DNA of 32,766 nucleotides, taken from the NCBI GenBank assembly GCA_003990765.1, contig RBNJ01000336.1, forward strand, positions 1 through 32,766, read 5' to 3'. Shown piece after piece: positions 3,626 to 22,681 of this stretch. The notes under the pieces are model-generated. The model was not told the origin of the DNA. It made no database searches and saw nothing but the letters and a program-made list of their open reading frames with translations. Within the stretch, counting starts at the first letter, position 1; each line of letters begins with the position of its first letter. The DNA is from Jimgerdemannia flammicorona. Lineage: Eukaryota. Both the position numbers and the translations under genes were made by a program.

Positions 3626-3665
3626 ACTATTTATAAGGAATATTGTTAAAGATTAAACTTCTCCT

Positions 3666-5692
3666 CTACAAATCCACACTCAAGTCCTCCTGTACCAAAT
3701 CCAAGATGTGTTCTACATCGAGTTCCTTCTTCTCAGCTTCCTGTATCTCCAACCCCCCCAGAAGTTCAACCATTGCCCCATCTTCTTTCTCCTCAAAGTC
3801 CTTCTGATACTCTACACAGGCCTCCTGCCAGAACTGCAAACCATGGCATTCTGCCTAACTGTAGGCAGCCCGCTCATCAGCAATGACCACCAGCTCTACC
3901 TTCCTCACCTCATCTACCTCATATCCCTCTTCTTCCAGTAAGATTGCAAGAATCTCTACCTTCAGCACCTCCACCACTCCATCATCTTGCAGAATCTGTG
4001 CCCAGTGCTCCTCTGGCATGACCCTCAGATCCACTTCCCCCAACACCTCAGCTGCAAGATTATCCATCATCTTGCTCATCCACAGCAGATTCCCAATCTT
4101 CTTCCCTCCAGGGGTCCCTGGCCACCCTATATCCAGCATCATAGTATCAGCACCTACACTGGCATTCTCATTCCACTCCTCCTCTGGGACATCTACCAGC
4201 TTGTCCTTACCAACTGCCACCACCTGGCCCCCTTTCGCCATATCTGGGACCCCAAAGGTAACTTGCTGGGCCCCCTGCATCAGTATATCCTCTGCCACCC
4301 CTCTCCACTCCACCGAGCCCCTCCTGACAAGTGGGGGGGGGGTGCTATCTGACTCCTTCTGCTAAACTTCAAAAGAACCATCTGTATAGGGATTCTTGCC
4401 CAGCACCTTTGCAGCCTATTCTTCTGTCACCACTGCCTCCTTTCCTCCTTCACTAGCCCATACACTGGCTTTGATGCCTCCAGACTCCTCCACTCCATCT
4501 ACCTTCCTCATCTCACCTCCTGTCATACTTACCAAGAGCTCTCTCTGCCTCAAGCACCCCTGGGCCCACTCCCACTGCCTCTTATCACTGCGGATACACT
4601 TCCTCTCTACAATCTCCAGGTACGTTGACTCCTCATAGAGCTTCCAGGCCTTTGCCTGCCATTCCACCACTCCACTCATCTCCTCTAATGCTTCCAACAA
4701 GTCCTCCACCTCCTCCTCATTCCCCTTTACCTTCAACACTTTACAAACAAAAGCCTCCCACATCAACACTGTGGGCCAGTCACCTGCCTTCCCTGTAGCC
4801 TCTCTCCCTGCCAGCCAAATCCTGATATCAACATCATCTATTGTAATCATCATCCCCTCTCACACCTGGAAGCCAATATCTACCACATCCCCATACTCAG
4901 CCATGACCTCCTCTACCCTCCTCCTCATCTCCTCTTTTATCACTGTAGGTACCCCCTTCACTAGCAGCTGTACCACCCTGGGGTCCCACCTCAAACAGCA
5001 CACTATTGTGACCACCATCTCTCCAAATGCCACTCCAGCCCTCAGAGTCTCTTCTAGTGGGCCCACCTCCTCAAAGCCCACCTCAACTCCCTTCAAACCC
5101 TTCAGGAATTTCACTGAAGCCATTCCAGCCACCTGCTTTGAGATAAGCCCCAAGACCATCCTCGCCATCACTCTTAAGCCTTTGAAGCATAGTGTCACTG
5201 CAAACTCCAAGATCAATTTCTTGAGTAATGGCACTACTGCCAGCCCCATTACACCATCAGCCAGGTCTCTCTTCTGCATCGGGAACCCCTGCACCACTCT
5301 ACCATCAGCCATCACATCTCTTTTTTTTTCCTGATCCTCCATCACACTCCTATCAATAGTCACACCCCCAGCCACAGCACCATCAGCCCCTATGCTCACT
5401 GCTCCCTCTGAGGGCCACTCTCCCTCCTGACACTAGCCTTGTCCTTCCCCTCAGTAGTGCCAGCCCTGGTTTCAGTAGGCCATCCACCTGCCTTCACCTT
5501 GTCAGTAAAGCTGGAGAGACCAGACCTTCCCCCAGATCCACTAGACACCAGTCCATCTCCAGAGCCTTCTCCCACCTTTGACCCTCCAAAAGCCCCCATC
5601 TCCAATCCAAAATCTCTCCCCACCTGCTGCTAGCCAAAAGCCCCAGATCCACCCAACCCAGTATGCCCATCAGAACTCTTGCTTGATGACAT
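3666..5692 (-). pseudogene. Family A ORF1 (putative RNA-binding/chaperone protein), disrupted
   Basis: ATG at 5692 (MSSSKSSDGHTG) is homologous to A2 MSLSKSSNGHTG. ORF fragments 5396-5623, 4860-5399, 4416-4853 and 3855-4313 match A2 fragments. Lies immediately upstream of APE-RT; stop TAG at 3666-3668. Confidence 0.8.
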
Positions 5693-5777
5693 TCTTATAA
5701 TATCTTTTCTCCGAGTTATGTTGGAAACTGTTGTCTGAAGTTTGTGTAATATGAATAGTATAGGAGAAAAGAGCATG

Positions 5778-7450
5778 CAGGGCTCTCTCCTCTCCCCTTA
5801 GCTTTTTGATGTCTTTATCGACCCCCTTGCCGCCTCCTTTGTTAATCAGTTCAAGGAGTACAACTTCTCCCTCAGGCTCTTCTTTGCTGATGATATCGCT
5901 CTCACCCCACGCACTACCATGGAAGGGCAGAGGATGATTGACTTTTGTGAGAATTGGTTTCTGGTAAATGGTATAGAGCTCAACCCCAAGAAGTGCAGTT
6001 ATGTTGGCCCTGCTGACTGTACTGTGCAGATTAGGGGTGAGCCATGCCCCTGACCCCCCTCCTACATGTATCTGGGCATGTCGTATACCAACAAAGGGTT
6101 TGATTTTGTCAGCCTCGCATTGTAGAATGCAGTAAAGACAGAGTGAACTCTTGGGTTCTGCTGTGCCCATGGTCCCCTCTGGTCACCAATGGTCAAGCTG
6201 GCCATCATATGGACATTTATTAGGCCTCAGCTAGAGTATGGCCTCTCCCTTCTATAAGCCTCCTGCCCAGCAACTACTATGGGGCTTCAGTTATTGAAGT
6301 GTCCCGAACAGATCTTTGAAGATGCTGTTGCTTGGGTGGTCAGATTTTCTGACTGTCCCTTGCTTGGCAGTTCAATTCTTGGCCTCCCTTCCTTCCTTTA
6401 TCATATTTCAGACCTCTGCTGCATGTTCTAAGCCCATCTGGATTGGTGTAGTAAGTCCAGCAACAACCCCATCAGTCCCCTTAGTGAGCACTTTATCATG
6501 CATCCCTCGGGTTCAATCATTGACAAGTTCTGGTGTTGGACCTCTTGGCTTGACTTTCTCAACTAGTACTGGGACCTCTATCCCTAGGTCCACAAGACTC
6601 ACTAACTCTACTCCTTCCTCCAGTCTTTCCTTCAGGATTAACTACTTCAGGAATGGGCTTCCTCCTCTCCGGCTCTCATTCAGTATATCACCCCAAAGGC
6701 TGCTTGTGGTTGCAGGGTACCAATCATATCCTCTCCTTCCCCCCCCAGCTTACGTGCTCTGCCCTTGCCTGGTGCTATGACTATTTTGGCCAACCCCACC
6801 CCTGCCTCTGTGGAGATAAGTTTTATTGTGGCCATCTCCTCAGGTGCAGTCTTCTTACTAGTTCATATTCCACATTCCGAGATACTTCTGATTGAGATGA
6901 ATAACTCGATTGGTTTACCAGTGATGAATGGTAGGAGGAACTTTATGTCTACCTTCTTCATATTCTTCATGAGACAGCCTATCACACTATCAACACCATA
7001 TATAATTCTGGTGGCTATCTCGCAGTTGGGTTCTACCTGACCGAGATTACCAAGATGCTTGGGTGATCAAGCGATCGCATATTTTATTTATTCTCTTCTC
7101 TCCCCTCATTTGCCTCAGTTGGTTCCCTTGTTGTTGAGAGTGCATTGAGTTACTCATCTCATATTAGTCATTTGGTATTTGGGTGTCGATATGGTTCCTA
7201 TAGTTGATATTGGGCATTTGTATATTTTACTTAGTTTCTCTCTTTTTTGCTTCTCTGCATTTTATTATCTTTACAGCTATGATAAAATGGTTTTATTCAG
7301 TCCATCTATAGGGTGGACATCTCTCTGGCCTTTGTTTTGTACTTCTTAGCTAGTTGTTTACTTCACTGGTCTGGTTTTGCTTTTCTCATCTTAGGAGTCT
7401 TTGCTGTTTGTTGCTCTGATATACTACAATGAATAAATCCTTACTTAAAG
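5778..7450 (+). mobile_element. Family B non-LTR retrotransposon copy B1, 5'-truncated inside RT
   Basis: Begins at cagggctctctcctctcccct (QGSLLSP), followed by LFFADDIAL and the C-terminal Cys/His region; ORF2 stop at 7064-7066. The T-rich 3' UTR ending aatgaataaatccttacttaaag is colinear with B2 and B3. Confidence 0.9.
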
Positions 7451-7460
7451 CCTAATCTAA
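7451..7460 (+). repeat. Degenerate telomere-type repeat (cctaa tctaa) at the B1/B2 junction
   Basis: Same position relative to the B 3' end as the perfect CCCTAA tract at 19532-19548. Confidence 0.6.
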
Positions 7461-7671
7461 GCCACTCACATGATTTCCCATTCAGCTAGACTTGGCTTTA
7501 TAGCCCGAAGCTATTCTAAATTAGGAAATCAGTCACTTTGATTAGCTAAGCCTCTCATCAGGTATAAATACCCCTTTCTTCATTATTTTTTCATTGTATA
7601 AACAAAGGTCATGTGACCCATATTTCTCAATTTCACAAATAAAAACAAATACACCTCTACCTATTTCGGCA
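7461..7671 (+). promoter_or_regulatory. Family B 5' UTR with TATAAATA box and two E-box-like sites (TCACATGA, GGTCATGTGACC)
   Basis: Motifs at about 7466, 7563 and 7607 are all retained in B3 (about 14403, 14500, 14545). Function is inferred. Confidence 0.45.
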
Positions 7672-10376
7672 ATGTCGGTCACCTCCACCATTATAGGTGA
7701 TGATAGCAATGCCACCCATCTCTTCACATGCTTCGGCACCTCGCTCCACTGTACTGAATGTCACGGCATCGGTCTTCTTTCCCTCAGCTTCAGTGAGAGT
7801 AGCCTTATGGTGATGTGTAGGTTGTACAGGGATGTATGACTAATATCAGCATATTTATCTTCCTTGTATGATGCGGAAGATGACAAAGAGATCATGATCT
7901 CTTCTGATTTGGACCATGAAGCTCAGTGCACTCCCTTCTCTCCCATGCCCCCGCCCCTCAATCACAATAGGCACAGTTGTCTGAACACTAGTTTGGGCAT
8001 GACCCTGACTGCTAGTTGTGTGGACCCCTCAGCTGATCCTGATCTAATCATAGAGATAGCCATGATGAGAATGCAGATCTTGGATCTACTGACTCAAGTG
8101 GCCAAACTGGCCAAGATCAATACCCAGCTGATGGCACAGCTTGCTGCACAATCTACACCCACCACCCTCTCATCATCTGGTGCTCTTTCAGGAAGTACCC
8201 CCACTGCCTCTTCCACATCCACCCCACTCAAGTCCTCAGCCCCCCCTCCTACTGGTCCTGCTACCAACATGTGGTTGAAGGCCCAGAAGTGAGTGGATAA
8301 GCAGGCCACTAAAGCTACCATGTCACAGTCAGGTGTGCTGTCAAAGGAGGTAACTCATTTTTTTTTTTTTGTTTAACGGACTCTATGTCCTGCAGATTTT
8401 TATTGGAAGGGAATCTAGACTATATAGGCCAAAACCCTCCCCCACTACCCATCAAGTACTGCCCCCTCATTAACCTAGACTAGCTATTGTCCAGCAGCTT
8501 GACCATGCCAGGCGCAGTAGGGCAAAGGAGCCCAAACCTCATTCTGTACACCATGCTCTCCCTACTACCAGGGGAAAACCCAGCCATATGCCAATGACTA
8601 AAAGCGCATGCCCGAGAACCCAACGTATGCACAAGGCCATGCCCGAGCTGAATAGAATAGCCTCTGCCACCTCAAAGAGAATGACAGGCAAAGAAAAAAC
8701 CCTCATCAAAGTACAACATGGTGGGTAGGGCCTGGTTCTCCCAGTCAAGGTGAGTAGAGGACTTACATATGAGGTGGGAGGAGACCCCAATACCCCACTA
8801 CTCAAGCCTGCGGGCCTCGATCACATTGCCGTGTCAGCTCCCAGTTCCAGTTGAGTGCAGCCAAGATGCCTGAAATGGGTAGCCTTGGGCCTCCCGACCC
8901 CCCACAATGACCAGGGCTCAACCCCACGAATCACCAAAAGACGCTGAGAGTGACACCTACCACCTAACTATACTGCACTAATCAAAAGGCCCCACCAAAG
9001 CAGCACCCGCCCCAGCCCTGATGACCGCCCCTAGCCTGGTACCCTACTGGTTCACCATAATTGCCCTTCCTCCTATCTATGATGGCCATCTCTTCTTCCA
9101 TCCCAACAACACCTGAAAAACAGTCACCTACGCCAGAACTATGCTCGCCGAGAAGCTCACCAAAGCCAGAGGGCCCCACCACAGGCACCAAGGACCTGCA
9201 GGTAACCTAAACTGAGCACTTGATGCCCAAGGTCAGCCAACTCCCTATGTAGCCCGAGACACACCAAGACAACTCCTTGTTAGCAATGGCAAAAGGAAGA
9301 AGGCACCACACCAAAACAGGTACACCCAGATGTAGCTGAAGGCACCAGAATCTATGAAAAAGTAGAGGAAGCACCGATCCGATACCGATAAAGGGGCAAC
9401 TCATCACCATTGCTCTCCTCCCACTATGCCCCTATAGGCACAGCAAACCAACCTGAGGTAGAGGGGGTAATAATAGGGGAAAGGGAACTTGGAAGGTCGC
9501 CAACCAAACCTTGTGACCGGTAAGGTAGCAGAGAAAGGAGCTATTTGACAAAGGAGGTAACTCCCATGGCCACACCTCCAGCTACCAAAGCTGCACCCCC
9601 TAAAAAGGGTAAGGCCAAGGCCCCCAGACCAGTGCCCCAGGTTATGCCTGTGGGACCCAGTGTCACTGGTCTGTCTTCATCCCCTGCTTTGACCCCACCC
9701 CCCCCAAATTATATGCTGCCACTGCCAAGAAGATCTCTATCAAGGATAGGACACAGGCCTTCTCTAAGATGGAAAGAGCAGCTGCCGCTGCCACCCTTTC
9801 ACACATGACTCACAAGCTGACCTTTCATTTATCACCAACTGAGAAGCACACTAGGCTGCAGGGCATTTACATCAACAGATTTGCCCATCTTAAGATCAGG
9901 CAGATCTGGAAGAATTTTACGATGTCCATGTGATGTTGTCAAAAGTTCTCAATATATTGTATGTCTCGGCATCGACCATCGAATTCCTTCTCTACTCTGA
10001 TTATATCACAGCATTCTAAAAAAAGATGAAGGTACTTAGATTCTTGGTACTGATGGCCTGGGACCCTGCACTCCCCTGCAACAAGAATATCATGGAGGCT
10101 GTAAAGACATGGGTACTCCAATTATTCCACGCTCAGGTCCAGCAGCTGGCTAGCAATTCTACTGCAAAGAGGCCTGAGGTGCAGACCTTCTACAGAGCTT
10201 GGGCTGTGGAACTCAGCCTCACTCACCCCTCCCCCACCTCTCCATTGACTGGCTCTGCTTCGAAGGCAGGTGGTACTGTAGCTGTGACTAGTGAGATGGT
10301 GATATATTTGGAAGCCAAAGCTTCCTCCTCAGGTGCTTCCCAAGCTGTTGGCACTAATGCACCCAGCCCACAATGA
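7672..10376 (+). pseudogene. Family B ORF1 (copy B2), interrupted by the 8357-9548 insertion
   Basis: ATG 7672 is in frame with ORF 7864-8292 across a TGA (likely ex-CGA). Homologous to B3 ORF1. Ends PSPQ* at 10374-10376. Confidence 0.8.
8357..9548 (-). mobile_element. 1.19-kb poly(A)-tailed insertion carrying the family A 3' terminus (A3), 15-bp TSD
   Basis: T13 tract at 8358-8370 with AATAAA on the minus strand (8399-8404). TSD caaaggaggtaactc at 8342-8356 and 9549-9563, present once in B3 near 15280. The terminal ~190 bp match 31125-31309. Confidence 0.9.
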
Positions 10377-11379
10377 GAGTCAGGTTCCTCAATGTACACA
10401 GACTACTACAGGACAAGTTCGATATACTCAGTCAGTTGATTCATCCTGCCCTTGACATTTTTTTCATATATGAACCATGGCACATTCTGCTGCATCCCTC
10501 TCTGCTTATTCATATTTCCTCTCCTCCGGCATCACACAGGATCATGAGTCACCAGAATGGTTCTCTTGTGGTCCTTGTATCAAACCATTTCGCCCCCCTT
10601 ATTTCCAGGTTCTCTGCTGACTCCTTCCATATCTGGCTCATATTCCAGAGTCTGGCTTTAGTCGGTATTTACACCCCCCCCTCTCTCCCTATTGGTGGCT
10701 TCTATGATCTTGTTTCTGATCCCTTTCTGAGTAAGGCTCTTCTGATCAGTGACATCAATCCCCACTTTGGTGCCTACCTTAGTGATGTCAACTCTGGTTC
10801 TTGGGATTGGCTGGATGTTATCGACACCTCCTTAGTGATGTGATCATTGAACCACCTGACCCCGGTGGCTGGCTCTACATGTATTGATCATGCATTCACC
10901 ACTATATCCCTCTATGCATCTCTCACCTGCACCACTCCCCCTGTTGCCACTGACCACCCTTTCCTCCTTATCATCTCCTTTCTCTTCTCCCCCTCATCAG
11001 TTGCTGCCTTGGCTACTGTCTGCCATTACTCTGCGAAATACCTGACTGATCCAGTCATCCAAGCCCATCTTCAGGAATCAGTGGATATCATTTGCGATAC
11101 TATTGTCAGATCCATCTACTCTATTCGGGACCACATCACTGGCTTTCACTCTGTGGAAGATCACCAGCAGTTTGTAGATTCTCTCGATGCCCTTTTGACC
11201 TCTGGTCTACAGTCAGTTTGTGAGGACATTCTTGGCTCATATAACACAAGAGAAATTAGAGTGGCACTGCTCCCTCGGTGGGACCTTCTTCACAGTGCAT
11301 CATCGATTTCTGATTCTATTTGTGGCTTCAAGTATGCATACTGCTCCACCCCCCCCACTCCTCTCCAATCTCACTCCTC

Positions 11380-12054
11380 CCATCTTTGAGGATTTTGATT
11401 CATTTACAACAATGCTATGCTGCCCACTAGGATCATCAACAAGAATGCACAACAAGATTCCCCGTACCCATGCAACAACTATACCATGATCATCCCACAC
11501 CTTGATCATGGATCCAAGGAATTCTGAAAGATTTGGGCATAGGACTTCGAAATTGCCTGCACAAACTTGAGCATTTGGTCGCAGACCTTGTCTTGGTTTG
11601 CTTTCATTTTATTGATATCATTTATTCCTTGTGTGAACTGTTCTGCCATTTTGGAGAATCGCTGTTCCATGAGAGTGTGAACAATTTCTTTGATCTCCTC
11701 CACGCATTGTTTCATCTGTGAGAACAGAGAGTCCATCTGCACCTACACATTGTTATAATGATCTTGAAGCTTCTCCTGCAGCGGGAGTTGATTGAATGGT
11801 GCCAGTGGGCCCAGGCCCAGGCCTGCCGACTGAGTATCTTCTCCGTGGGCCTCGTCTTGATCATTACTGTCTCCTCCAGTAAGGTTCGCACTATCATTTG
11901 GGTTGGAGTCCATGAGTTTGCCTGGTGTAGAGCCGGTTTGAGAAGAGGTTGTTGATTGATGTGTTGACATAGAGTCAGGAGTGTTGTATACTAGTTAGTC
12001 ATTGTTGATGCTGGTCATTGACACCATGGTTCATATTGAAGGGGAACCAGTCCG
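11380..12054 (-). mobile_element. 675-bp orphan insertion with 16-bp TSD (retrocopy or non-autonomous element)
   Basis: TSD tccaatctcactcctc at 11364-11379 and 12055-12070. Absent from the equivalent B3 site near 17085-17100. No poly(A) or terminal inverted repeats seen. Confidence 0.85.
11506..11970 (-). pseudogene. 154-codon ORF (S/T/D-rich N-terminus, coiled-coil-like C-terminus) with one in-frame TAG
   Basis: ORFs 11743-11970 and 11506-11742 are contiguous and in frame, separated by a single TAG (plausibly ex-CAG). The ORF fills most of the insert. Product not recognised. Confidence 0.65.
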
Positions 12055-14381
12055 TCCAATCTCACTCCTCTGCTATCTTAGTGTTTGATGACGTGGTTGC
12101 TCACTTCACCACTATCTTCAGATAACTGAACATCTCTCTCTGCCTCAATGACTCTGAGGACATCTTCCCCCTTGGCATGGAGACCCTTAGACTGCAGAGT
12201 TGGTTTGACCAGCCTGTGGTTTGGAGGGCCATCTATAGCTACCCCCTCTCTAAGGTCTGTGGGGCTGACTCCTTGTACATCCGGATCCTTTGGGTGATGG
12301 TGGGCAAGAAGGATGCTCCCTGTAGCCTGTCCAAAGCCTTGTCATTTTTCTTCCAGATGTGTGTGGTATGGAGGCTCACTCTCTGCTGCTAAAACTCTGC
12401 CATCATTACCCCAATTCCCAAAAAGGAGGAATTCTGGACCATCAATGGTTTCTGCCCTATCACTCTTACTGAAATGTTTCATAGACTCTTTGAGCAGTGT
12501 TTAAAAGGTTATGTGAAGAGCTAAAGTGGCCTGACAGAAATATCTTGCTGCCAAGGGGGCTTCTGAACCCGCTTCTCATCCCTCTCCCATGTCTTGCTTT
12601 TGCATAAGATATGGGCTAAGGGATGGAGCTGCCATGTCTTTCTTGATCTCCAGTAGGCATATGATAGAGTCCCCCTTAAGCTTATTCTATCCCAACTTGA
12701 GATGCAAGGAGCTGATGCAGCCCTCCTTAGCATTATCCATAGTCTGTCCAATCACTGTCCCTATCAGGTGGTTGTTAATGGCCTCATCACCCCCCTGGTC
12801 CCTACTTAGTGTGGCCTCTTCCAAGGCTCCCTCCTCTTCCCCTGGCTCTTTGATATCTTTATCAACCCTCTTGCCATCTCCTTTGATGAACAGTTTAAGG
12901 AGTATGACTTTTCCCTCAGGCTCTTCATTGCTGATGATATCACCCTCACCCCCTGTACTGCTGCAGAAGGGCAGAGGATGATTGACTTCTGTGAGGATTG
13001 GCTTCTGATGAACAGTATGGAACTCAACCCCAAAAAGTGCGGTTATGTTGGCCCGGCTGACTATACCATGCAGATTGAGGGAAGGCCCTGCCCGTGACCC
13101 CCCTCCTACATATACCTGAGTATACTATATACTAACAAAGGGCTTGACTTTGTCAGCCTTGTGTTATAGAATGCGGTGAAGACAGAATCAACTCTTGGGT
13201 TCTGCCATGCCTGTGGTCCCCTCTGGTCGCCAATGGTCAAGCTGGCCATCATATATATATTCATTAGGCCTCAGCTGGAGTATGGCCTTCCCCTTCTACA
13301 AGCCTCCTGCCTGACTACTACTATGGAGCTTCAGGTGTTGAAGCATCCCATGCAGGTCTTTGATGATGCTATTGCTTAAGCAGTCAGATTTTCTAGCTGT
13401 CCCTTGCTTGGCAGCTCTATTCTCAGCCTCTCTACCTTCCTTTGTTAAACATCAGACCTCTGCTGCATGTTCCAAGCCTATCGGGATTGGTGTAGCAAGT
13501 CTGGCAACAATCCCATTGACCCCCTTAGCAAGTGCTTTGTCATGCATCCACTGGGTTCTATCATTGACAAGTTCTGGCATTGGACCTCTTGGCTTGACTT
13601 CCCTGACTGGTACAGGGACCTTCGTCCCTAGGTCTGCAAGACTCGCTTGTTCTGCTCCTTCTCTCCCTGACTTGTGCACTCTGCCCTCACCTGGTGCTAT
13701 GGCTACTTTGGCCAACTCTGCCCCTACTCCTATAGAGATAAGTTTCACCATAGACATCTTTCAGGTGCAGTCTTCTTGACAGTTCATATTCTTCATTCCA
13801 AGGTACTTCTGATCAAGATGCTCAACTTGATTGGTTTACCAGTGATGAATGGCAGGAAGAACTTCATGCCTACCCTCTTCATGCTCTTTACGAGGCAGCC
13901 TACCATGCTATCAATACTATGTATATCTCTGGTGGCCACCTCATGGTCGGGTTCTGCCTGACTGAGATTATGAAGATACTTGGGTGATTGAGTGATCACA
14001 CATTTTCTTTATTTTCTTCTTTTCCCTCATTCGCCTCAGTTGGTTCCCTTGTTGTTGAGAATGCATTGAGTTATTTATCTCATGTTAGTTATTAAGTGTT
14101 TGGGTGTCAATACAGTTCCTGTAGTTGGTGCTAGGTATTTGTGTATTTTACTTAGTTTCTCTCTTCTTTGCTTTTCCACATTTATTATCTCTATGGCTGT
14201 GACAAAATAGTTTTATCCAGTCTATCCATAGGGTGGTCACCTCTCTGGACTTTGTTTTTGTACTTCCTAGCTAGTTGTTTACTTTGCTAGCCTTCTTTTG
14301 CTTTTCTCATCTTAGGAGTCTTTATCATTTGTTACTCTAATGTACCTTGTCTTCTCTACAATGAATAAATCTTACTTGAAG

Positions 14382-14397
14382 CCTAACTCTAATCTTA
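14382..14397 (+). repeat. Degenerate telomere-type repeat (cctaa ctctaa tctta) at the B2/B3 junction
   Basis: Differs from cctaa ccctaa cccta only by C->T changes. Confidence 0.7.
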
Positions 14398-14609
14398 GCC
14401 ACTCACATGATTTCCCCATTTTGCTAGACTCGGCTTTATGGCCCAAAGCTATTCCAAATTAAGAAAGCAGCCACTTGATTAGCTAAGCCTCTCATTGGGT
14501 ATAAATATCCCCCTTCTCTATTATTTTTTTGTTGCACAAACAAAGGTCATGTGACCCACATTTCACAATTTCACAAATACAAACAAATACATCTCTGCTT
14601 ATTTTGACA

Positions 14610-16107
14610 ATGTTGGCCACCTTCTCTATCATTGGTGATGATGGCAATACCACCTGTCTCTTCATACACTTCAGTGCCTCACTCTGCTGCACAGAATGTC
14701 ACAGCATTGGTCTTCTTTCCCTTGACTTCAGTAAGGGTAGCCTTATAGTGATGTGTATATTATACAGGGATGTATGACTGATATCGGCATATTTATCTTC
14801 CCTGTGTGATGCAGAAGATGATGACGAGATCGTGATCTCTTCCAATTTGGACCATAATGCCCAGTGCCCTCCCTTCTCTCCCATGCCCCCACCCCTCAAT
14901 CAGAATAAGTACAGTCATCTGAACACTAGTTTGGACATGACTCTAACTGCCAGTCATGTGGGCCCCTCAGCTGATCCCGATCTGGTCACAGAGATGGCCG
15001 CAATGAGGAAGCAGATCTCGGATCTGCTGACTCAAGTGGCTGAACTGGCCAAGATCAATATCCAGCTAATGGTACAGCTTGCTGCACAATCTGCGCCCAT
15101 GGCCCCCTCATCATCTGGTACTCCTTCAGGAAGTACCTCTGCCACCCCTTCCACATCTGCCCCCCCCAAGTCCTTGGCCCCCCCTCCTACTGGTCCTGCC
15201 ATAAATATGTGGTTGATGGCCCAGAAGCAAGTAGACAAGCAGGCCACTAAACCTGCTGCATTGCAGTCTGGTGCACTGCCAAAGGAGGTAACTCCCAAGG
15301 CCACACCTCTGGCTGCCAAAGCTATGCCCCCTAAAAAGGGCAAGACTAAGGCCTCCAGGCCAGTGCCCCAGGTTATGCCTGTGGGACCCAGTGTCACTGG
15401 CCTATCTTTGTCCTCCGCTTCAACCCCCACTCCCCCAAAATCATATATCGCTGCTGCTAAGAAGGTTTCTATCAAGAATAGGACCCAGACCTACCCTGAG
15501 ATGGAAAGGGCAGCCACCACTGCTGCCCTTTCATGCATGACCTGCAAGCTGACCTCTCATGTCGCCGACTGAGAAGGGTGCCTGGCTGCAGCACATTTAC
15601 TTTGATAGATTTGCCCATCTTAAGATTTGGCAGATCCAGAAGAAGTTGTATGATGTCCATGTGATGTTGTCAAAAGTTCTCAACATATCATATGTCTTGG
15701 TATTGACTATTGAATTCCTTCTTTGCCCTGATTATGTCATGGCATTCCAAAAGAAGATGAAGGTACTCAGGTTCTCAGTGCTGTCAGCCTAGGACTCTGT
15801 ACTCCCCTGCAACAAGAATGCCATGGAGGCCATCAAGGAATGGGTACTCCAATCATTCCATGCTTGGGTCTGGCAGTTGGCTGGCAATGCCAGTGCGAAG
15901 AGGCCTGAGGTATAGACCTTCTACAGAGCTTGGACCATGGAACTCAGCCTCACTCTCCTCTCTTCTACCTCCCCATTGGCCGGCCCTACTTCAAAGACAG
16001 GTGGCACTGTGGCTATGACTGGTATAATGGCGATGGATTTGGAAGCCAAAGCTTCCTTCTCAGGTGCTTCCCACACTATTGGTACTAATATATACAGCCC
16101 ACAGTGA
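14610..16107 (+). pseudogene. Family B ORF1 (copy B3)
   Basis: ATG 14610 is in frame with 14832-15572. N-terminal CTEC motif, coiled-coil segment (MRKQISDLLTQVAELAKINIQL), P/A/S-rich linker, KSYIAAAKK, then a conserved block (LYDVHVMLSKVLNISYV..TIEFL..DY) after a frameshift. Confidence 0.8.
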
Positions 16108-19100
16108 GAGTTGGGTTCCTCAATATACATGGACTACCCCAGAACAAGTTCAATATACTCAGTAAGTTGATTGGTCCTGCTCTCAACATTCTTTTCATAT
16201 GTGAAATGTGGCACATTCTGCTGCATCCCTCTCTGCTCATTCACATGTTCTCCCCTCCAGCATCATACAGGATCGTGGATCACCAGAACAGTGGTCTCAT
16301 GGTCCTTGTGTCAAACTGTTATGCCCCCCTCATTTCCAGATCCTCTGCTGACTCCTTTCATATCTGGCTCATATTCCAGAGCCTGGCTTTGGTTGGGGTT
16401 TACGCCCCACCCTCTCTTCCTATTGGTGGCTTCTGTGATCTTATGTCTGGCCCCTTCCCAGGTAAAGCCCTTTTGATCAGTAACCTCAACACTCATTTCA
16501 GTACCTGCCTTGGTGACATCAACTCTGGTCCTTAGGATTGGATGGATGTCATCAACACCTCTCTGATGATATGGTCATTGAACCACCTGACCCTGGTGGC
16601 TAGCTCTACACATATTTGCCACTGTGTCCCTCCATGTGTCCCTCACCTGCACTACTCCCCCTGTCACTACCGACCACCCCTTCCTCCTCACTGTCTCCTT
16701 TCCCTTCTCCCCCTCACTGGTTGCCACCCCGGCTAGTGTCTGCCGCTACTCTGTAAAGTATCTGACCAATCCAGTTGTTCAAGCTCACCTTTGGGAATCA
16801 GCAGATATCATTTGTGATACCATTGTCAGGTCCATCTACTCTGTCAGGGACCATGTTGCCAGCTTTCAGTCTGTAGAAGATCGCCAGCAGTTTGCAGATT
16901 CCCTCAACACCCTTTTGACCTCTGATCGTCAGTCAGTTTGTGAGAACATCCTTAGCTCATATGACATAAGAGAAATCAGAGCAGCACTGCTCCCTTGGCA
17001 GGACCTTCTTCACAATGTATCTTCAGTCTCTGATGCTATTCATGGCTTCAAGTGTGCATACCACTCCACCCCCCCTGCCCTTCTCTAATCTTGCTCCTCT
17101 GCTGTCTCAGTGTTTGACAATGTGGTTGCTCATTTCACAACTGTCTTTGGTCAACTGAACGCCTCTCTCTGCCTCGATGACTCTGAGGACATCTTTCCCC
17201 TTGGCATGGGGGCTCTTGGACTGCAGGGTTGGTTTGACCAGTCTGTGGTTTGGAGGGCCATCCACAGCTACCCCCTCTCTAAGGCTTATGGTGCTGACTC
17301 CTTGTATGTCCAGATCCTTCAGGTGATGGCAGGTGAGAAGGATGCTCCCTGCAGTCTGTCCAAAGCCTTATCATTCTTCTTCCAGATGTATGTAGTGTGG
17401 GGGCTCACTCCCCACCACTAGAACTCAGCCATCATCACCCCAGTTCCTAAGAAGGAGAAATCTCAGACCATTGATGGATTTCGCCCCATTGCTCTTACCA
17501 AAATGTTTCATAGACTCTTCAAGCAGTGTTTGGAAAGCTATGTCAAGAGCCAAAGTGGCTTGACAGAAATGTCTCACTGCCAAGACAGCTTCTAAACCCG
17601 CTTCTTCTCCCTCTCTCATATCTTTCTTTCGCATGAGATGTGGGCTAAGGGATGGGGCTACCATATCATACTTGACCTCCAGTAGGTGTATGATAGAGTC
17701 CTCCTCAAGTTCATTCTTTCCTGACTTGAGGCGCAAGGTGCTGATGCAGCCCTCCTTAGCATTATCTGAAGCCTGTTCAATCACTGTTCTTATTAGGTAG
17801 TTGTTAATGGCCTCATCATCCCTTTGGTCCCCACTGAGCACAGCCTCTTCCAAGGCTCCCTCCTCTCCCCCTGGCTCTTTGATGTCTTTATCAACCCACT
17901 CGCCACCTCCTTTGATGAACAGTTTAAGGAGTATGACTTTCTCCTCAAGCTCTTCTTTACTGATGATATTGCTCTCACTCCCCATACTGCCGTGGAAGGG
18001 CAGAGGATGGTTGATTTCTGCAAGGACTGGCTTCTGGTGAATGGTATGGAACTCAATCCTAAGAAGTGCAGTTATATTGGCCTCGCCAACTGTACTCTGT
18101 GGATTGGGGGCAAGCTCTGCCCACAACCCCCCTCTTATATATACCTGGGCATACCATACACTAACAAAGGGTTTGACTTTGTCAACCCGGCATTACAGAA
18201 TGTGGCAAAGGCAGAATGAACTCTTGGATTCTGCTATACCTGTGGTTCCCTCTGGTTGCCAATGGTCAAGCTGGCCATCATATGGACATTCATTAGGCCT
18301 CAGCTGGAGTATGGCCTTCCCCTTCTATGAGCCTCCTGCCCAGCCACTATCATGGGGCTTCAGATACTGAAGCATCCCAAGCAGGTCTTTGATAATACTG
18401 TCACTTGAGTGGTCAGATTTTCTGGCTGTCCCTTGCTTGGCAGCTCGATTCTTGGCCTCCCTTCCTTCCTTTGTCATATGTCGGACCTCTGCTGCATGTT
18501 ACAAGCCCATCTGGATTAGTGTAGCAAGTCTGGCAACAACCCTATCAGTCCCCTCAGCAAGCACTTTGTTATACATCTCCTGGGTTCTATCATAGACAAG
18601 TTCTGGCATTGGACCTCTTGGCTTGACTTCCTCGACTGGTACTGGGACCTCTGTCCCCAGGTCCACATGACTTGCTCGCTCCGCTCCTTCCTCCAGTCAT
18701 TTCTCTGGGATCAGCTGCTGCAGAAATGGGCCTCCTCCTCTCAGGCGCTTGTTCGGTATATCACCCCCAAAGGCCACTTGTGGTTGCAGGGTGCCAACCA
18801 TGTCCTCTCCTTCCACTCCCAGCTTGTGCAATCTGCACTTGTCTGGCACTATGGCTACTTTGGCCAACCTTGCCCCTGCCCCTGTAGAGATAAGTTTCAT
18901 CATGGCCATCTCCTCAGGTGTGGTCTTCTCGACAGTTCATATTCCATATTCCGAGATTCTTCTGATTGGGAACAACTCAATTGGTTTACCAATAACAAAT
19001 GGCAGAAAGAACTTCATACCTACCCTCTTCACGCTCTTCACGAGATAGCCTACTATACCATAGATGCTATGTATAATTCTGGTGGCCACCTTGCAGTCAG

Positions 19101-19137
19101 GTTCTGCCTGACTAAGATTATGAAGATGCTTGGGTGA
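16104..19137 (+). pseudogene. Family B ORF2 (copy B3): APE + RT + C-terminal Cys/His finger
   Basis: FLNIHGL, FICEMW, GVYAPPS, TDHP; FRPIALT, LFQGSLLSPWLFDVFI, FFTDDIAL, MELNPKKC, YIYLGIP; CPCPCRDKFHHGHLLRC near 18870-18920. Multiple stops and frameshifts. Confidence 0.92.
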
Positions 19138-19531
19138 TTGAGTAATTACACATTTTCTTTATTTCCTTCTTTCCCCTCATTTGCCTCAGTTGGTTCTCTT
19201 GTTGTTGAGAGTATATTGAGTTATTTATCTCATGTTAGTTGTTTGGTGTTTGGGTATTGATACAGTTCCTGTAGTTGGTGCTGGCCATTTGTGTATTTTA
19301 CTTAGTTTTTCTCTTCTCTGCTTTTCCATATTTATTATCTTTATGGCTGTGACAAAATGGTTTTATCTAGCCCATCTATAAGATGGTCACCTCTCTGGCC
19401 TTTGTCTTGTACTTCTTAGCTAGTTGTTTACTTTGCTGGTCTTATTTTGCTTTCCTCATCTTAGGAGTCTTTGCCATTTGTTACTCTGATGTATCTTATC
19501 TTCTCTACAATGAATAAATCCTTACTTGAAG

Positions 19532-19548
19532 CCTAACCCTAACCCTAA
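19532..19548 (+). repeat. Telomere-type repeat cctaa(ccctaa)2, i.e. TTAGGG on the minus strand
   Basis: Read directly: gaag-cctaaccctaaccctaa-agtcatt. Confidence 0.85.
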
Positions 19549-20272
19549 AGTCATTGATAGTGATATCATTGAAGACTATCTAGATAGCATCTAAATCTGT
19601 AGATAGTCTAGCAGTTATTAGAATAGTTAGATTAGTCTTATATGATATGACTGTGAACTGATGCAGTAGTCAGATAGTCTCTTAATATGTCAGATCAGAC
19701 TTGTACTATGTGACTGCATTCTGACTTAGTAAGGTACTAAGTACTATATCTATATTTAGCATAGTCCAGATAGCCTCCTATTAGTATAAATACTCTTTCT
19801 CCCAGACCTCAGAATCTCAGACTCAAATAAGATAAGTACAATCCTAAATACTTCTCCACAATATTTCTTCACATAACTACTCCTAGTATAGCAATATTAT
19901 AAATATTGAATATACCAATTTAATAACCCACAAATGACTCTTAAGTAAATCTGAACCCCATTAGTTCCCACTCCTAACCATATTATGAAATTTTCTAATT
20001 GGATATTATCTATAGTAATATGCTAATTTAATGAAGCTGGTCTTAGTTTCTTGAACTTCCTGAAATACACAAAATCCTGAACATCTAGAACTAGTCTGAA
20101 AAAGGACTTTGGTTGAGATATCAACCTGATCTTGAAATCAATAAGCATAGAGGACATACTCTATATAAAATTAATCTTGATCTAAAGAAAACAGTCTTTC
20201 AGAATATCCAGAACTTCCAGAAACCTATTCAAGAACTATATAATGGTTACTCTAATAAGTAACCCTCTTACA
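19549..20272 (+). repeat. Putative 5' LTR
   Basis: Non-coding, with TATAAATA near 19785; ends ...ttaca just before a PBS-like motif. No second LTR in the window, so the boundaries are uncertain. Confidence 0.55.
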
Positions 20273-20275
20273 ACT

Positions 20276-20287
20276 TGGTAGTAGTGG
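20276..20287 (+). promoter_or_regulatory. Putative primer-binding site (tggtagtagtgg)
   Basis: TGG-starting motif 3 nt after the ...CA LTR end. Resembles a TGGTAGC (tRNA-Met-type) PBS with a C->T change. Confidence 0.5.
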
Positions 20288-20299
20288 TTTACAATCAAT

Positions 20300-22260
20300 A
20301 TGCTTCTTCACCCTGCTACAAACCTCTATAAGAATTCCTATAAGTTGGTATAAAGTCCAACCTCTGAACTGAAATTTATCCTGAGCCATCTGACAATCTG
20401 AAGAGAATTAAACCTGACATACAAGGACAATTTGACCTCAATATCTGCAATAAGTGAGACAAACTTCATTCAAAGAAAGAAGTACTCCAGTTAAATCAGC
20501 AGATAGGTTAAACTCTATACATCAAACTCCTTGCACTATACCCAGCAAGTCAGAATGAAGAAGGTCTTATAGAAGTCTTCTTTACTTTTCTCAACAAGAG
20601 TTTTGTCAGCTCCACAAATCCAAGTGACCTAGGACAACCAGCAGTGGTCTTTCTAGCCTTAGTTCCTCATGAAGTCCAAGTCTCCATAGCCAAGTGGCTC
20701 AACTTTACTGACTTTCACCACACCAGGACCAAGACTGCATTATACTACTGCTTTCAGAATTGTAAGGCCCACTATATTCTTAAGGAAGAAGCAAGGGAAA
20801 CTCTCTGCCAACAATCTGACTCCAAACCAGAAGCAGGCCAAGCTACAGCTTTATCTGAACCTGAAACTAATACTGAACCAGAACTTGACATTGAATTAAG
20901 TCCTTCCAAAATCAGATATACAACTGATTCTATCTCTTTGATGCTGAGCAAACCCAATTATATGGAGACCAAAGTCAAGAGGAGGAGAAGTATCTCAGTG
21001 AATTTGATCCTAGATATACTACCGAAGGAGATATATCTCCATCAGGACAGAATACACCTACATAGCAACAGATGGCTATTTATCAAGCCCTCACTCCAGA
21101 CCCACAACTACTACTCCAGCAACTTATACAGACTCAAAGAACCCCATCACACTCTGCACCAGTACCTCAAGTAGTACCAGTAACACCACCACCAGTAGTC
21201 CAACTGCCTCTAGCAAACAATATTGCAAACCAACAGATTCTAGATCTCACAGCCCAAATAGCTATAATGGCAGCAACTATTACTACATTAGCTGAACAGA
21301 TCTGATCTACCAAAAATCAAAGCCTATCTACCTTCAATGGTACTACACAAGAAGTCCAAAGCATCATTTATATAGTTGAAACCAACTTTGAAGCCAATCA
21401 ATAGACCAATGAGTGAGTTGCTGACTACCTTCTTATAAATAATCAAGACCACACTCTGGAATAACCCTTTGCTACTACTACAGCCTATGTCTGTTGAGTT
21501 GTTATATTCTTCTGAGGACCCACCAAAGAATGGTAGTGAATCCTTCCTGAAAAACCCCCCCCCATGGGACACTCAACCTGCAGTTGTTGCCCAGAATGCA
21601 GCAAATAATACTCTAGAATATAGAGCCCACCCTGCAGCCCCTGGACTCAATCAGCTCATGATTGCTCAATACTGCAGCAAAACTATGATCACTGAATCTC
21701 AAGTTAAACTCTGTAACATCAAATTTGATATAAGGAATTCAAAACCTTCTATACAAAACTTAAGTCACTTCTGAACACCATTGGCCTAGGATATTGCTGA
21801 TGATGAAGCATGAAATGGTATAAGAGCAGACCCTCTATTCAATGCACTACCTGAATGGCTTATAAGAAAAATCCAAAAATAGGAACACCCAGTTGGTTGT
21901 GATCACCAACAATAATACTAGGCAAGAATCAAGACTATGGTCAAGTGAATCCTAACAGCTGGACCAATTCTGCCCCAAAGACAATTCAACAACAAGGAAA
22001 AGACTTGGACCAAGAAAGAAGAACCCAAGCATGAAGCATCCTGAGCTCCTGCAACATCCACCTCATGGACATCCAGAAATCATAAACCCATCCAGTCAAA
22101 TACCTTTAAGCAACTCACTAAAGGAGAAAGAAATGAACTTCAAAGAAGTAGAGCTTACTTCTATTGCTGAAAGACAGGACACATGGCCAGTGTCTACCCT
22201 AATTGAAAAACCCAAACAGCTATATGAGCAACTGTTACTACTCTGCACTACCTCAATAAC
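20300..22260 (+). pseudogene. gag: gag-like region with degenerate CCHC zinc knuckle
   Basis: 22153-22200 reads AYFYC*KTGHMASVYP, restorable to ACFYCRKTGHMASVCP by transitions alone. Upstream P/Q-rich and coiled-coil segments. Start position uncertain. Confidence 0.7.
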
Positions 22261-22275
22261 CTGACTATCAGAATA

Positions 22276-22681
22276 CTGTACTTTGTCAAGTTAAGGCAAA
22301 CTGCCAAGGTCCCAATCAAAGGAAGTCAAAATGCAGCTGGATATAACCTAAATGCAGCTGAAGAAGCTACAGTTTCCAACCAAGAAGTCAGACAAGTCTA
22401 TACAGGAATCAGCATCCAAATCCCTGAAGAAAATTTCAGAAGAATATACTATTACAGCAGCCTAGCATTGAAAGAACTCTAAGTAGAAGGAGGAGTCATT
22501 GATGAAGATTATATAGGTGAAATTATTGTCCTCATCTGAAACCATATTTGGACACTCTTCAAGATCCCCATTGATTTCTGTATTGCCCAGATCCTATTTG
22601 AAAAAATCTAGTCAACTCTGATAGTCAAGAAAGTCTGAACTACTACCTACTATCTGAGGATCTAAAGGATTTGGCTCATCA
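22276..22681 (+). pseudogene. dut: Trimeric dUTPase domain
   Basis: Manual translation gives AKVPIKGSQNAAGYNL, TGISIQIP, RI...SSLA, GGVIDEDYIGEIIV, IAQILF and *GSKGFGSS: all five dUTPase motifs in order. Confidence 0.92.

Follow-up and report, generated by a model that had tools for sequence, protein, structure and literature searches.

Do the short telomere-type repeats that join the copies of a LINE in the present window (the whole 32.8-kb stretch of DNA analysed here) mark a former chromosome end, or do they belong to the element itself?

Three LINE copies joined by telomere-type tracts

Self-BLAST and a repeat search of the window revealed three copies of the element, termed family B, lying head to tail in one orientation and abutting one another, as the original prediction had described. 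B1 (5778..7450, + strand) comprises only the 3′ 1.67 kb, that is, the end of the reverse transcriptase (RT; Pfam RVT_1 within 5802-6050), the C-terminal region and the 3′ UTR. B2 (7461..14381, +) is a full-length copy that reaches 6.9 kb only because of two later insertions (8357-9545 and 11364-12054), and B3 (14398..19531, +; 5134 bp) is full-length and insertion-free. The common start base proposed for B2 and B3 is indeed present, both copies opening with gccactcac. Pairwise comparison shows the same degree of divergence between all three copies, at about 82% identity overall (B1-B2, 81.6% over 1558 aligned columns; B1-B3, 82.5% over 1679; B2-B3, 82.8% over 5021), and their joints are collinear, since a single self-BLAST HSP (6733-8356 / 13655-15294) crosses a joint uninterrupted.

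At each B 3′ end, AATAAA is separated by 13-14 bases from a CCTAA-type tract, which is 10, 16 or 17 bases long. Motif search placed the signals of B1 and B2 at 7432 and 14364 (+), and that of B3 (19513..19518, +) lies 13 nt upstream of its tail. The three tracts read exactly as first claimed. Joint 1 (7451..7460, +; cctaatctaa, 10 nt), which connects the 3′ end of B1 to the 5′ end of B2, is a degenerate telomere-type tract that requires one indel and one transition; joint 2 (14382..14397, +; cctaactctaatctta, 16 nt), between B2 and B3, equals on direct reading CCTAACCCTAACCCTA with three C-to-T changes and zero indels; and the B3 tail (19532..19548, +; cctaaccctaaccctaa, 17 nt) contains a perfect 2.8 units and directly abuts a Gypsy element. 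Sites resembling CCCTAACCCTAA with at most one mismatch occur in the window at the perfect tract alone, as two overlapping matches against 0.22 expected. The composite motif of AATAAA, up to 25 nt and a telomere-like 10-mer is found on the + strand of the window at 7432, 14364 and 19513, plus a loose match at 23209, with zero matches on the − strand; 200 mononucleotide shuffles of the window contained 0.675 matches on average and at most 3.

Family B encodes an ORF1 and an ORF2, the latter with an APE endonuclease, an RT and a Cys/His motif. In B2, the conserved ORF1 domain (9909-10262, +) was located by profile and alignment to the clade of relatives described below, followed by the APE region (10373-10960, +; one frame, one stop) and the RT (12060-13298, +). 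In B3, the ORF1 remnant (14778..15933, +) comprises a 264-codon open stretch (14778-15569) and the C-terminal domain that the clade's ORF1 shares with family B (15553-15933), and it matched no Pfam family. The APE remnant of B3 (16089..16680, +) carries a frameshift between 16532 and 16591 and a TDH motif from 16666. From 16591 to 19134, ORF2 is a single frame interrupted by 11 stops, with the RT domain at 17446..18150 (+; Pfam RVT_1, residues 286-520 of the read-through P0006) and the C-terminal Cys/His motif at 18871..18921 (+), in register with the clade's CxxC...F.R.H...C. The predicted domain composition of ORF2 holds; Pfam detected RVT_1 alone on the decayed copies, and the APE assignment comes from hhalign of the B2 N-terminal region against the clade profile (probability 99.9, E 2.7e-32). 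Every B copy is dead, with C-to-T decay at CpG as the main cause, and transposons in the window's host are nearly free of CpG.

The whole window is transposon debris. To the left of the array lies A1 (57..5769, −), a member of a second LINE family with APE and RT and of the poly(A) type, whose 5′ end meets the 5′ edge of B1, so that truncation of B1 at insertion is not required. The right-hand flank is a Ty3/Gypsy LTR retrotransposon remnant (19549..25422, +; GC 38%) with dUTPase, RT, RNase H and integrase zinc finger, interrupted within the integrase by A2 (25423..31312, +), the inverted partner of A1 (75% identical), which ends in AATAAA plus poly(A) near 31300. Of the insertions within B2, one (11364..12054, strand unassigned) is 691 bp long and has a 15-bp flanking duplication, CCAATCTCACTCCTC; the other is a 5′-truncated LINE A copy (8357..9545, −) that bears a poly(A) tail and is flanked by a target-site duplication of 17-19 bp (about 8338-8356 and 9544-9566), whereas family B has neither of these.

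A CCCTAA tail in a clade of APE-type LINEs

A search with the B3 read-through (P0006) found 251 proteins with an E of 1e-30 or lower, and the top full-length match reached 8e-89. In a tree of 61 rows, built with FastTree only and excluding 20 loci with ORFs <480 aa, B3 falls inside a 38-row clade with an SH-like support of 98; its placement there is uncertain (long branch, 1.49). The relatives are intact elements on metagenome contigs, which can mis-join repeats, and across the clade the ORF2s are only 25-40% identical. RVT_1 was detected in 27 of 27 aligned relatives and Exo_endo_phos in 16 of the 27, and the endonuclease residues are kept. Against human L1 ORF2p, the profile of the relatives gives a match spanning endonuclease to RT (E 8e-49), and against the L1 endonuclease alone one of about 1e-7. 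Although endonuclease chains of TRAS1 and R1Bm are present in the PDB, no chain so named was recovered up to E 10, whereas L1 endonuclease chains were. Family B is apparently a dead member of a widespread, undescribed APE-type LINE clade; full-text literature searches brought up no paper that describes a clade of this kind, which agrees with the earlier proposal of a candidate new system.

The tail is a trait of this clade. A strict motif was defined for the sense strand beyond the ORF2 stop: A[AT]TAAA, 0-25 nt and an 11-mer at most one mismatch from (CCCTAA)n. It is present in 17 of 37 clade loci. Of the 29 loci whose 3′ end is visible, in that they either show the motif or extend for at least 150 nt past the stop, 17 have it and the other 12 lack it. 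The motif occurs zero times on the antisense strand and in none of the 22 sister-group loci. Variant tracts occupy the same place in five further loci (L005, L014, L016, L031 and L033), and six clade loci show no tail at all (L004, L006, L008, L019, L035 and L039). Variant units comprise CTCTAA in L010, CCTAA in L031, CCTAC in L014 and CCCTAAA in L012 and L026. Over all 80 loci, 52 sense CCCTAA-like tracts compare with 10 TTAGGG-like ones. The relatives' terminus reads AATAAA, up to 25 bases, 2-4 sense-strand CCCTAA units and then unrelated DNA, which in most cases is non-telomeric. Always short in the clade, from 4 nt (L018, CCTA) to 28 nt (L015), the tail mostly has a fixed starting phase (non-C, then CCTAA), but its end may fall in any phase. 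Among 17 post-tail flanks searched, 11 had no nucleotide-level match to any other stretch of the fetched loci; one of these, in L005, encodes the next copy at the protein level.

At least eight unrelated loci have head-to-tail joints at such tails, a sample subject to ascertainment bias since arrays in relatives are recognisable only where a tail precedes. In L005 the tail is followed by the ORF1 and ORF2 of the next copy, in L016 by an RT fragment reading VFIDLKQAYDRVP, and in L047 a 5′-truncated copy begins within 30 nt of a tail; L018, L027 and L029 also belong here. In L017, an upstream 3′ end of the L018 type (98.9% identity), with its tail, is joined to a 74%-identical element and then to a copy of about 30 nt with its own tail, and this mixture of subfamilies shows that L017 arose by successive insertions and not by duplication. 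Together, the conserved terminus and the recurring joints identify the CCCTAA tract as the family's own tail. The telomere reading of the original prediction therefore stands as regards APE-type LINE 3′ ends joined to telomere-type repeats, but not as regards a telomere remnant, the tract being the terminus of the clade (17/29). The short telomere-like joints in the window are no proof of a former chromosome end, and the argument from orientation, which placed the chromosome end to the left with B1 as the truncated distal copy, has no footing, because the tract is a conserved terminus and not a shown telomere remnant; B1 is cut where LINE A1 begins.

With regard to the target, the ORF2s of L021 and L025 are only 40% identical, yet these two loci have the same downstream DNA (97.6% identical) and join it exactly at the CCCTAAC motif of the first 30-bp repeat unit. 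The relatives yielded neither a target-site duplication nor a 5′ junction to plain DNA outside the elements, so that insertion chemistry and TTAGGG-site preference rest on this pair and on the arrays. In the sister group, L044 and L050 end in a mirror-image tail (AATAAA, 9-11 nt, TTAGGG units); L050 lies between (TTAGGG)2.8 and a contig-terminal TTAGGG run of at least 11 units, that is, inside a terminal telomere array, and L043, of the sister lineage, also ends in a terminal array.

How the array may have formed

The explanation that we consider reasonably probable is that family B is a CCCUAA-tailed APE LINE priming on TTAGGG ends, and that the array grew by successive insertions into earlier tails. 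The clade's RNA would end in a short CCCUAA run rather than a retained poly(A), the units following an AAUAAA/AUUAAA signal by 0-22 nt and having the same sequence as the telomerase template. A DNA 3′ end terminating in TTAGGG could anneal to this tail and prime reverse transcription. Such ends would arise from a nick in any TTAGGG duplex. The most frequent source would be the tail of an earlier copy, next to telomeres and interstitial tracts, and a telomeric G-overhang could in principle serve too. Upon insertion into a tail, part of the old tract would stay 5′ of the new copy and a fresh tail would be laid 3′, and since each such insertion renews the tail, arrays with joints of 10-17 nt could grow at any site and would need no chromosome end. 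The array in the window would most likely have been built in this way next to, or inside, the Gypsy element, later followed by the two insertions in B2, the flanking by LINE A copies and C-to-T decay.

From the window alone, successive insertion, terminal addition and tandem duplication are indistinguishable, the copies being equally diverged. A real chromosome-end relic, in which copies were serially added to or inserted into a TTAGGG telomere with telomerase-made tracts between them and later internalised or buried, strikes us as rather unlikely. Such a relic would explain why all three joints carry the exact telomere unit in one orientation and why the last tract directly abuts unrelated DNA, as at a healed break; the sister-lineage loci L050 and L043 do sit at terminal arrays, endonuclease-less Penelope-like elements of Zymoseptoria with telomere-unit 3′ ends are described as strictly subtelomeric in an excerpt of PMC4522978, and many subtelomeres resemble the window in being transposon debris. 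However, no long telomere array exists anywhere in the 32.8-kb window, the DNA left of B1 is the oppositely oriented A1 and not a telomere, a long (CCCTAA)n is missing from the 5′ side of all 37 clade loci, and in the relatives the same short tail precedes DNA matching no other fetched locus. Chromosome ends would also be unneeded for insertion, since the endonuclease residues are conserved in the relatives.

That unequal crossing-over or replication slippage multiplied a single tailed B insertion appears improbable. The shared first base of B2 and B3 is also expected of independent full-length copies, and the uniform unit structure and equal divergence, which would suit such segmental duplication, are accompanied by joints of differing length (10, 16 and 17 nt). 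Nothing in the window demands independent insertions, but tail joints recur in the unrelated loci, including the mixed subfamilies of L017, and duplication cannot yield 5′-truncated copies right after a tail, as in L016, L047 and the mini-copy of L017. Simple-repeat tails are known from other LINEs, such as (TAA)n in the I factor and (TGTAA)n in eel UnaL2, and CCCTAA might be an ordinary tail of this kind with no functional telomere link, which we hold to be very improbable. The tail is short and length-variable, has the variant units listed above, and none of the clade's members was located at a telomere; on the other hand, its unit is the commonest eukaryotic telomere unit throughout a clade of such divergent ORF2s, the tails of L044 and L050 are the complementary strand, with L050 in a terminal telomere array, and two different families landed on the CCCTAAC motif. 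Three observations speak for a real telomere link, namely that the tail exactly complements TTAGGG, that the sister lineage carries the opposite strand, and that L050 occupies a terminal array.

Comparison with known telomere-linked elements

TRAS/SART elements (R1 clade, Bombyx and other insects) are, like family B, APE-type LINEs joined to telomere repeats, and their two lineages of opposite polarity are mirrored by the CCCTAA-tailed clade on the one hand and by L044 and L050, with their TTAGGG tails, on the other. According to excerpts of PMC7265360, their endonucleases recognise just 2-3 repeat units, which is the size of a B tail, so that one such tail would suffice as target. Unlike TRAS/SART, B and its relatives lack poly(A) and have 2-4 units followed by other DNA, and their origin is probably independent. 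APE-type telomere-specific LINEs, for which the original prediction named insect examples, also occur outside insects; Tx1-1_ACar of the green anole, an APE-type Tx1 LINE of the L1 group, is cited as telomere-specific, targeting TTAGGG repeats, in a portion of PMC10088271 that refers to a Repbase Report. As far as that description goes, it resembles B in being APE-type, telomere-repeat-linked and non-insect, and differs in its vertebrate host, B residing in one whose transposons are nearly free of CpG.

MoTeR, FoTeR and Cnl1 belong to the CRE/SLACS clade, with a C-terminal restriction-like endonuclease, and in the available part of PMC12857005 they share with B a non-LTR nature and short TAACCC-type flanking tracts, in fungal telomeric arrays. 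B has instead an N-terminal APE domain and an L1-like RT, which supports the predicted difference in architecture from these REL-type elements. HeT-A/TART/TAHRE of Drosophila also form head-to-tail LINE arrays with all 3′ ends the same way; as described in an extract of PMC5537684, their poly(A) joints lack telomerase repeats and they are added to chromosome ends in a telomerase-less host. Every B joint, by contrast, has telomerase-type repeats. Endonuclease-independent L1 insertion at dysfunctional telomeres was reportedly observed by Morrish and colleagues in 2007, an L1-type RT priming on the telomeric 3′ end; that element has no adapted tail, whereas the B tail looks built for such priming.

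By analogy, the B terminus would work most like that of the endonuclease-deficient Penelope-like elements (Athena, Coprina and the Zymoseptoria tritici 'family 4'), which likewise have 3′ telomere units, of reverse-complement polarity, and tandem arrangement with truncated copies. Excerpts of PMC4522978 give 'family 4' 1-3 TTAGGG units at 3′ ends, in tandem and strictly subtelomeric, and pairing of the tail with the G-overhang is proposed there and in part of PMC8557442. These elements have a Penelope-type RT, no endonuclease and a location at chromosome ends only; family B has an ORF1, an APE and an L1-like RT, and the tails of its clade relatives, unlike theirs, precede DNA that matches no other fetched locus.

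Structure and decay of the family-B array

Comparison of the window with itself revealed three co-oriented copies of a single element, family B, on the forward strand: B1 (5778-7450), which comprises only the final 1.67 kb, B2 (7461-14381) and B3 (14398-19531). The copies are 81.6-82.8% identical in pairwise comparison, and each is followed by a short CCCTAA-type tract, namely cctaatctaa at joint 1 (after B1), cctaactctaatctta at joint 2 (after B2) and cctaaccctaaccctaa as the tail of B3. Self-comparison and direct inspection of the joints confirm the three-copy head-to-tail array with telomere-type joints of the original prediction, including the joint sequences and the identical start base shared by B2 and B3. 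Joint 2 differs from CCTAACCCTAACCCTA by three C-to-T changes and no indels, and joint 1 needs one indel in addition. The inner joints measure 10 and 16 nt and the outermost tail, which is perfect, 17 nt; shorter inner joints would result if each incoming copy divided a tail already in place, a pattern that is only suggestive. The flanks of B2 and B3 are these repeat tracts themselves. Every B tract is preceded by AATAAA and 13-14 nt, and in the window this composite is found at the three B ends and as one looser match at 23209, with none on the opposite strand. The perfect tract is the sole such site in the window, where 0.22 are expected.

B2 is longer than B3 because of two later insertions inside it. 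One is a 5′-truncated, poly(A)-tailed copy of family A, a second LINE (8357-9545), with a 17-19 bp duplication. The other is a 691-bp insert (11364-12054) flanked by a 15-bp duplication, CCAATCTCACTCCTC, without poly(A), without an informative Pfam match and with no second copy in the window. To the left of B1, the minus strand carries the LINE A1 (57-5769), in which Pfam recognized APE and RT and whose 5′ end abuts the cut edge of B1. To the right of the B3 tail, a Ty3/Gypsy remnant (19549-25422) with dUTPase, RT, RNase H and integrase zinc finger is broken off in the integrase at the start of A2 (25423-31312, plus strand), which is 75% identical to A1 and inverted relative to it; no second Gypsy LTR is present in the window. 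The dUTPase domain of the remnant sits between gag/protease and RT, and its sequence has a GC content of 38% and a CpG observed/expected ratio of 0.01. Family A combines APE and RT with AATAAA and poly(A), and the A1/A2 pair, with 5′ ends facing inward, encloses both the B array and the Gypsy element. On the sense strand of family A the GC skew is extreme, from +0.36 to +0.52 across 5.7 kb, and CpG is nearly absent (observed/expected 0.03-0.08). After the poly(A) of A2, a stretch of 22% GC contains, at 31589-31980, a 14-bp aatctgaattactc-like unit repeated in tandem about 28 times. No long telomere array and no Rfam family occur in the window, and ARAGORN detected no tRNA in the window or in the 3′ UTRs of the related loci L024-L033.

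The array locus is a dead relic. Transitions outnumber transversions by about 7 to 1 among the B copies, CpG observed/expected is 0.01-0.2 in all window elements, (CpA+TpG)/(ApC+GpT) is 1.3-1.7 and TpA/ApT is 0.67-0.93. Between B2 and B3, CA stands against TG at 121 dinucleotides, which implies that CpG sites decayed independently on the two strands, and the TG/TA and CA/TA differences (111 and 90, respectively) show some CpA-to-TpA change too. Classic RIP was considered as the source of the transition bias and rejected, since the TpA/ApT, CpA+TpG and CpG indices do not fit it; the pattern points to CpG-directed decay of both strands, not to Neurospora-type RIP. On these CpG indices, the divergence of the B copies reflects hypermutation and not age. 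The same CpG-poor, CpA+TpG-rich composition extends to every transposon in the window and may help to place the host.

Protein make-up of family B and its relatives

The reverse transcriptase family RVT_1 was recognized by Pfam in B1, B2 and B3. In B3, ORF2 (16591-19134) is a single frame with 11 stops, and the protein obtained by reading through them carries RVT_1 at residues 286-520. Nothing beyond RVT_1 was detected by Pfam in 51 ORF pieces of the B region, and the APE region of these decayed pieces gave no match by Pfam or PDB sequence search. An exhaustive protein search with the B3 read-through retrieved 10,488 proteins at E<=0.001, 251 of them at E<=1e-30; most are about 1000 residues in length, with 25-35% identity. 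Among 27 aligned relatives, RVT_1 is found in all 27, Exo_endo_phos in 16 and an RNase H family in none, and the APE catalytic columns are invariant. The B2 segment 10358-11386 aligns to the profile of these relatives with a probability of 99.9, and its N, E, D-N, D and D-H motifs line up with those of the profile. The same profile matches human L1 ORF2p from the endonuclease through the RT (E 8e-49) and the isolated L1 endonuclease at about 1e-7. Among proteins of solved structure, L1 ORF2p is its best match over EN and RT, L1 ORF2p and R2 come closest to the relatives, and no chain named as an R1-clade endonuclease was matched up to E 10.

Upstream of ORF2, a C-terminal ORF1 domain is common to eight relatives and B (15553-15933 in B3, 9909-10262 in B2); it corresponds to no Pfam family, and the ORF1s of 13 relatives showed no informative Pfam family. 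The C-terminal region of B contains only the Cys/His motif of its clade. Given the N-terminal profile alignment of B2, RVT_1 and the shared Cys/His motif, the originally proposed arrangement of APE, RT and Cys/His finger was right. No terminal direct repeats of family B were found in the repeat search of the window. With an RT, an N-terminal APE, an ORF1 before ORF2 and no LTRs, family B has the predicted make-up of an APE-type non-LTR retrotransposon.

The CCCTAA tail as a trait of the clade

Scanning metagenome contigs, in which repeats may be mis-joined, with the alignment of the relatives yielded 80 loci. A FastTree phylogeny was built from B3 and 60 of these loci; the other 20, whose ORFs are shorter than 480 codons, were left out. 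B3 falls inside a 38-row clade with an SH-like support of 98, its branch being long and its exact place unsure. The B-type terminus was defined as AATAAA or ATTAAA followed, after 0-25 nt, by an 11-mer with at most one mismatch from (CCCTAA)n, in sense orientation and after the ORF2 stop. It is present in 17 of the 37 clade loci, or in 17 of the 29 that extend at least 150 nt past the stop or show the motif, so that 12 of these 29 visible 3′ ends fail the strict motif. It was found neither on the antisense strand nor in any of the 22 loci of the sister group outside the clade. Variant tracts occupy the equivalent place in five more loci (L005, L014, L016, L031 with (CCTAA)3, and L033); the tail is absent in six loci and consists of just CCTA in L018, and the L003 sequence breaks off. 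Across all 80 loci, where several tracts per locus are possible, sense CCCTAA-like tracts number 52 versus 10 TTAGGG-like ones.

Within the clade the tract is always short (4-28 nt), its starting phase is mostly the same, CCTAA after a base other than C, its end may fall in any phase, and no A run separates it from the 3′ UTR at the three B ends or in the relatives. In 11 of the 17 post-tail flanks searched, no nucleotide match to another stretch of any fetched locus was found, and one of these 11, that of L005, encodes the next copy at the protein level. The clade-wide terminus, the short length, the largely constant starting phase and the unmatched flanks show that the tract is a trait of the element, more than mere telomeric sequence at its insertion site. 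The telomere interpretation of the original prediction stands in part: the telomere-unit tail supports it, while the absence of a long array and the status of the tract as an element trait speak against it. Sixteen ORFs in post-tail flanks showed no informative Pfam family, and a Gypsy-like appearance of the L026 flank, noted by eye, was not confirmed and was set aside. The tail units vary, with (CCTAA)3 in L031 (3244-3258), CCCCTAACCTAA in L033 (about 4984-4995), and CCCTAAA and CCCTAAAA among L012, L026 and L027. These variants could reflect hosts with different telomere units, and the units, with CCTAA, CCCTAA and CCCTAAA in different loci, may track that of the host. Two intact elements related to each other share a conserved CCTACCTAACCCTAA-like word in their 5′ regions (L001 1-133, L002 1-275), tandemly duplicated in L002; this word either belongs to the 5′ UTR or is left over from the target.

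Arrays are a trait of the clade as well. The tail is followed by ORF1 and ORF2 of the next copy in L005 and by an RT fragment in L016, and L018, L027 and L029 have an upstream tail at their beginning. Upstream in L017 stands a tailed 3′ end, 98.9% identical to the L018 subfamily, after which come an element 74% identical to L018, the tail of that element, and a copy of about 30 nt with another tail; in L047, a 5′-truncated copy starts at most 30 nt from a tail. Such mixed subfamilies and truncated copies show successive insertions at tails. In addition, L021 and L025, whose ORF2s share only 40% identity, are joined to a common 3.3-kb downstream sequence (97.6% identical), with both junctions falling precisely on CCCTAAC in its first 30-bp repeat unit, which implies that two insertions chose a telomere-like word. 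This 3.3-kb shared sequence is headed by tandem units of about 30 bp (L021 8630-8850, L025 4464-4720), each with CCCTAAC(C/T)CT. The sequence may be subtelomeric repeat DNA or the beginning of a further element, and its ORFs showed no informative Pfam family. No target-site duplication was found in 19 relatives, whose 5′ ends lie mostly beyond the contigs, and no 5′ junction with plain DNA was found in the relatives, where 5′ junctions are recognized only through a preceding tail.

In the sister group, two loci with APE and RT (L044 and L050) end in AATAAA, 9-11 nt and TTAGGG units, the mirror image of the B-clade tail. In L044 (about 4016-4029), AATAAA and 9 nt precede TTAGGGTTAGG, which is followed by other DNA. 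L050 lies between (TTAGGG)2.8 (2168-2186) and a contig-terminal (TTAGGG)>=11 (8516-8586), and looks like a true telomere insertion. Its (TTAGGG)2.8 adjoins an upstream minus-strand ORF of 730 codons, unrelated to the L050 ORF1 and without a Pfam family. L043 has a contig-terminal TTAGGG array (5892-5977) 1.3 kb past ORF2, with no AATAAA nearby.

Origin of the arrays and relation to known telomeric elements

The sequences are probably best accounted for by a CCCUAA-tailed RNA primed by TTAGGG-ending DNA. The transcript would be cleaved a few bases past AAUAAA, with CCCUAA units near its end, and a TTAGGG-terminated DNA 3′ end would pair with these units and prime reverse transcription, any poly(A) being skipped. 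The endonuclease of the element could supply the primer by nicking any duplex that contains TTAGGG. Tract length would be set by the position of pairing, and slippage may renew the tract. For insect telomeric elements, a target of 2-3 units suffices (PMC7265360); on that account one tail would be enough as a target, which would explain self-targeting and arrays.

The window alone does not separate this priming model from its competitors. That the array is a true relic chromosome end seems unlikely: L050 of the sister group does lie among telomere repeats, but a long telomere array is absent from the window and from the 5′ side of all 37 clade loci. Tandem duplication as the source of the arrays is highly improbable, because it cannot yield the mixed subfamilies or the truncated copies at tails seen in L017 and L047. 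Hardly any weight can be given to a coincidental microsatellite tail, since related lineages use opposite strands of the telomere unit as tails, which makes chance an unlikely source. A wider reading, which we advance tentatively, would extend priming by TTAGGG-ending DNA to a widespread, undescribed clade of endonuclease-bearing LINEs whose RNA would end in telomerase-template-like CCCUAA. The primer might then be whatever DNA 3′ end finishes in TTAGGG, whether at a nicked tract, the tail of an earlier copy or a chromosomal G-overhang, allowing both internal integration and the capping or extension of chromosome ends, with a sister lineage using UUAGGG inside real telomeres. If so, the clade and its sister lineage would together have reinvented the TRAS/SART duality independently and outside insects, and would form a living intermediate that links target-primed reverse transcription by LINEs to end synthesis of the telomerase kind.

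The union of an intact endonuclease with a Penelope-style telomere-complementary tail in this clade would explain head-to-tail LINE arrays and short interstitial telomere tracts at transposon joints without old chromosome ends, and would warn against taking such tracts as scars of fusion or healing. The intact metagenomic relatives would allow direct tests of template-primer pairing in target choice and of LINE/telomerase kinship, and the AATAAA-N-(CCCTAA)2-4 terminus would be a usable family diagnostic for genome annotation.

Retroelements known at telomere repeats comprise TRAS/SART and a Tx1 element (APE, poly(A), inside telomeres), MoTeR/FoTeR/Cnl1, and endonuclease-less Penelope-like elements, in which a telomere-like tail pairs with the chromosome end. 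Elements of the TRAS/SART type are embedded in long telomere arrays, with repeats on both flanks, whereas to the right of B3 there are 17 nt and then Gypsy; embedding in a telomere array is found only in L050, in the sister group. TRAS and SART of the silkworm likewise use both telomere strands, as do the B clade and L044/L050. APE-type telomere-specific LINEs comprise TRAS/SART and, outside insects, Tx1-1_ACar (cited in PMC10088271), so that the restriction of such elements to insects in the original prediction does not hold, and target-specific APE LINEs are said to fall in the Tx1 and R1 clades (PMC4640811). The fungal telomeric LINEs MoTeR, FoTeR and Cnl1 have a C-terminal restriction-like endonuclease (PMC12857005), in agreement with the contrast to B drawn originally; compared with these CRE-clade elements, the endonuclease of B is N-terminal and of the APE type, and its C-terminus has only the Cys/His motif. 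In Zymoseptoria, elements of the subtelomeres whose 3′ ends carry 1-3 TTAGGG units are interpreted as endonuclease-less Penelope-like elements (PMC4522978). Full-text literature searches turned up no clade of APE LINEs whose members terminate in CCCTAA units. Endonuclease-deficient Penelope-like elements share with B a short telomere-complementary 3′ tract and a tandem arrangement, but they have a Penelope-type RT and lack any endonuclease, whereas the B clade has an APE domain and an EN and RT that match L1 ORF2p. Against the literature searched, what is new here is the combination of a clade-wide, telomerase-template-like tail with an endonuclease-bearing LINE.
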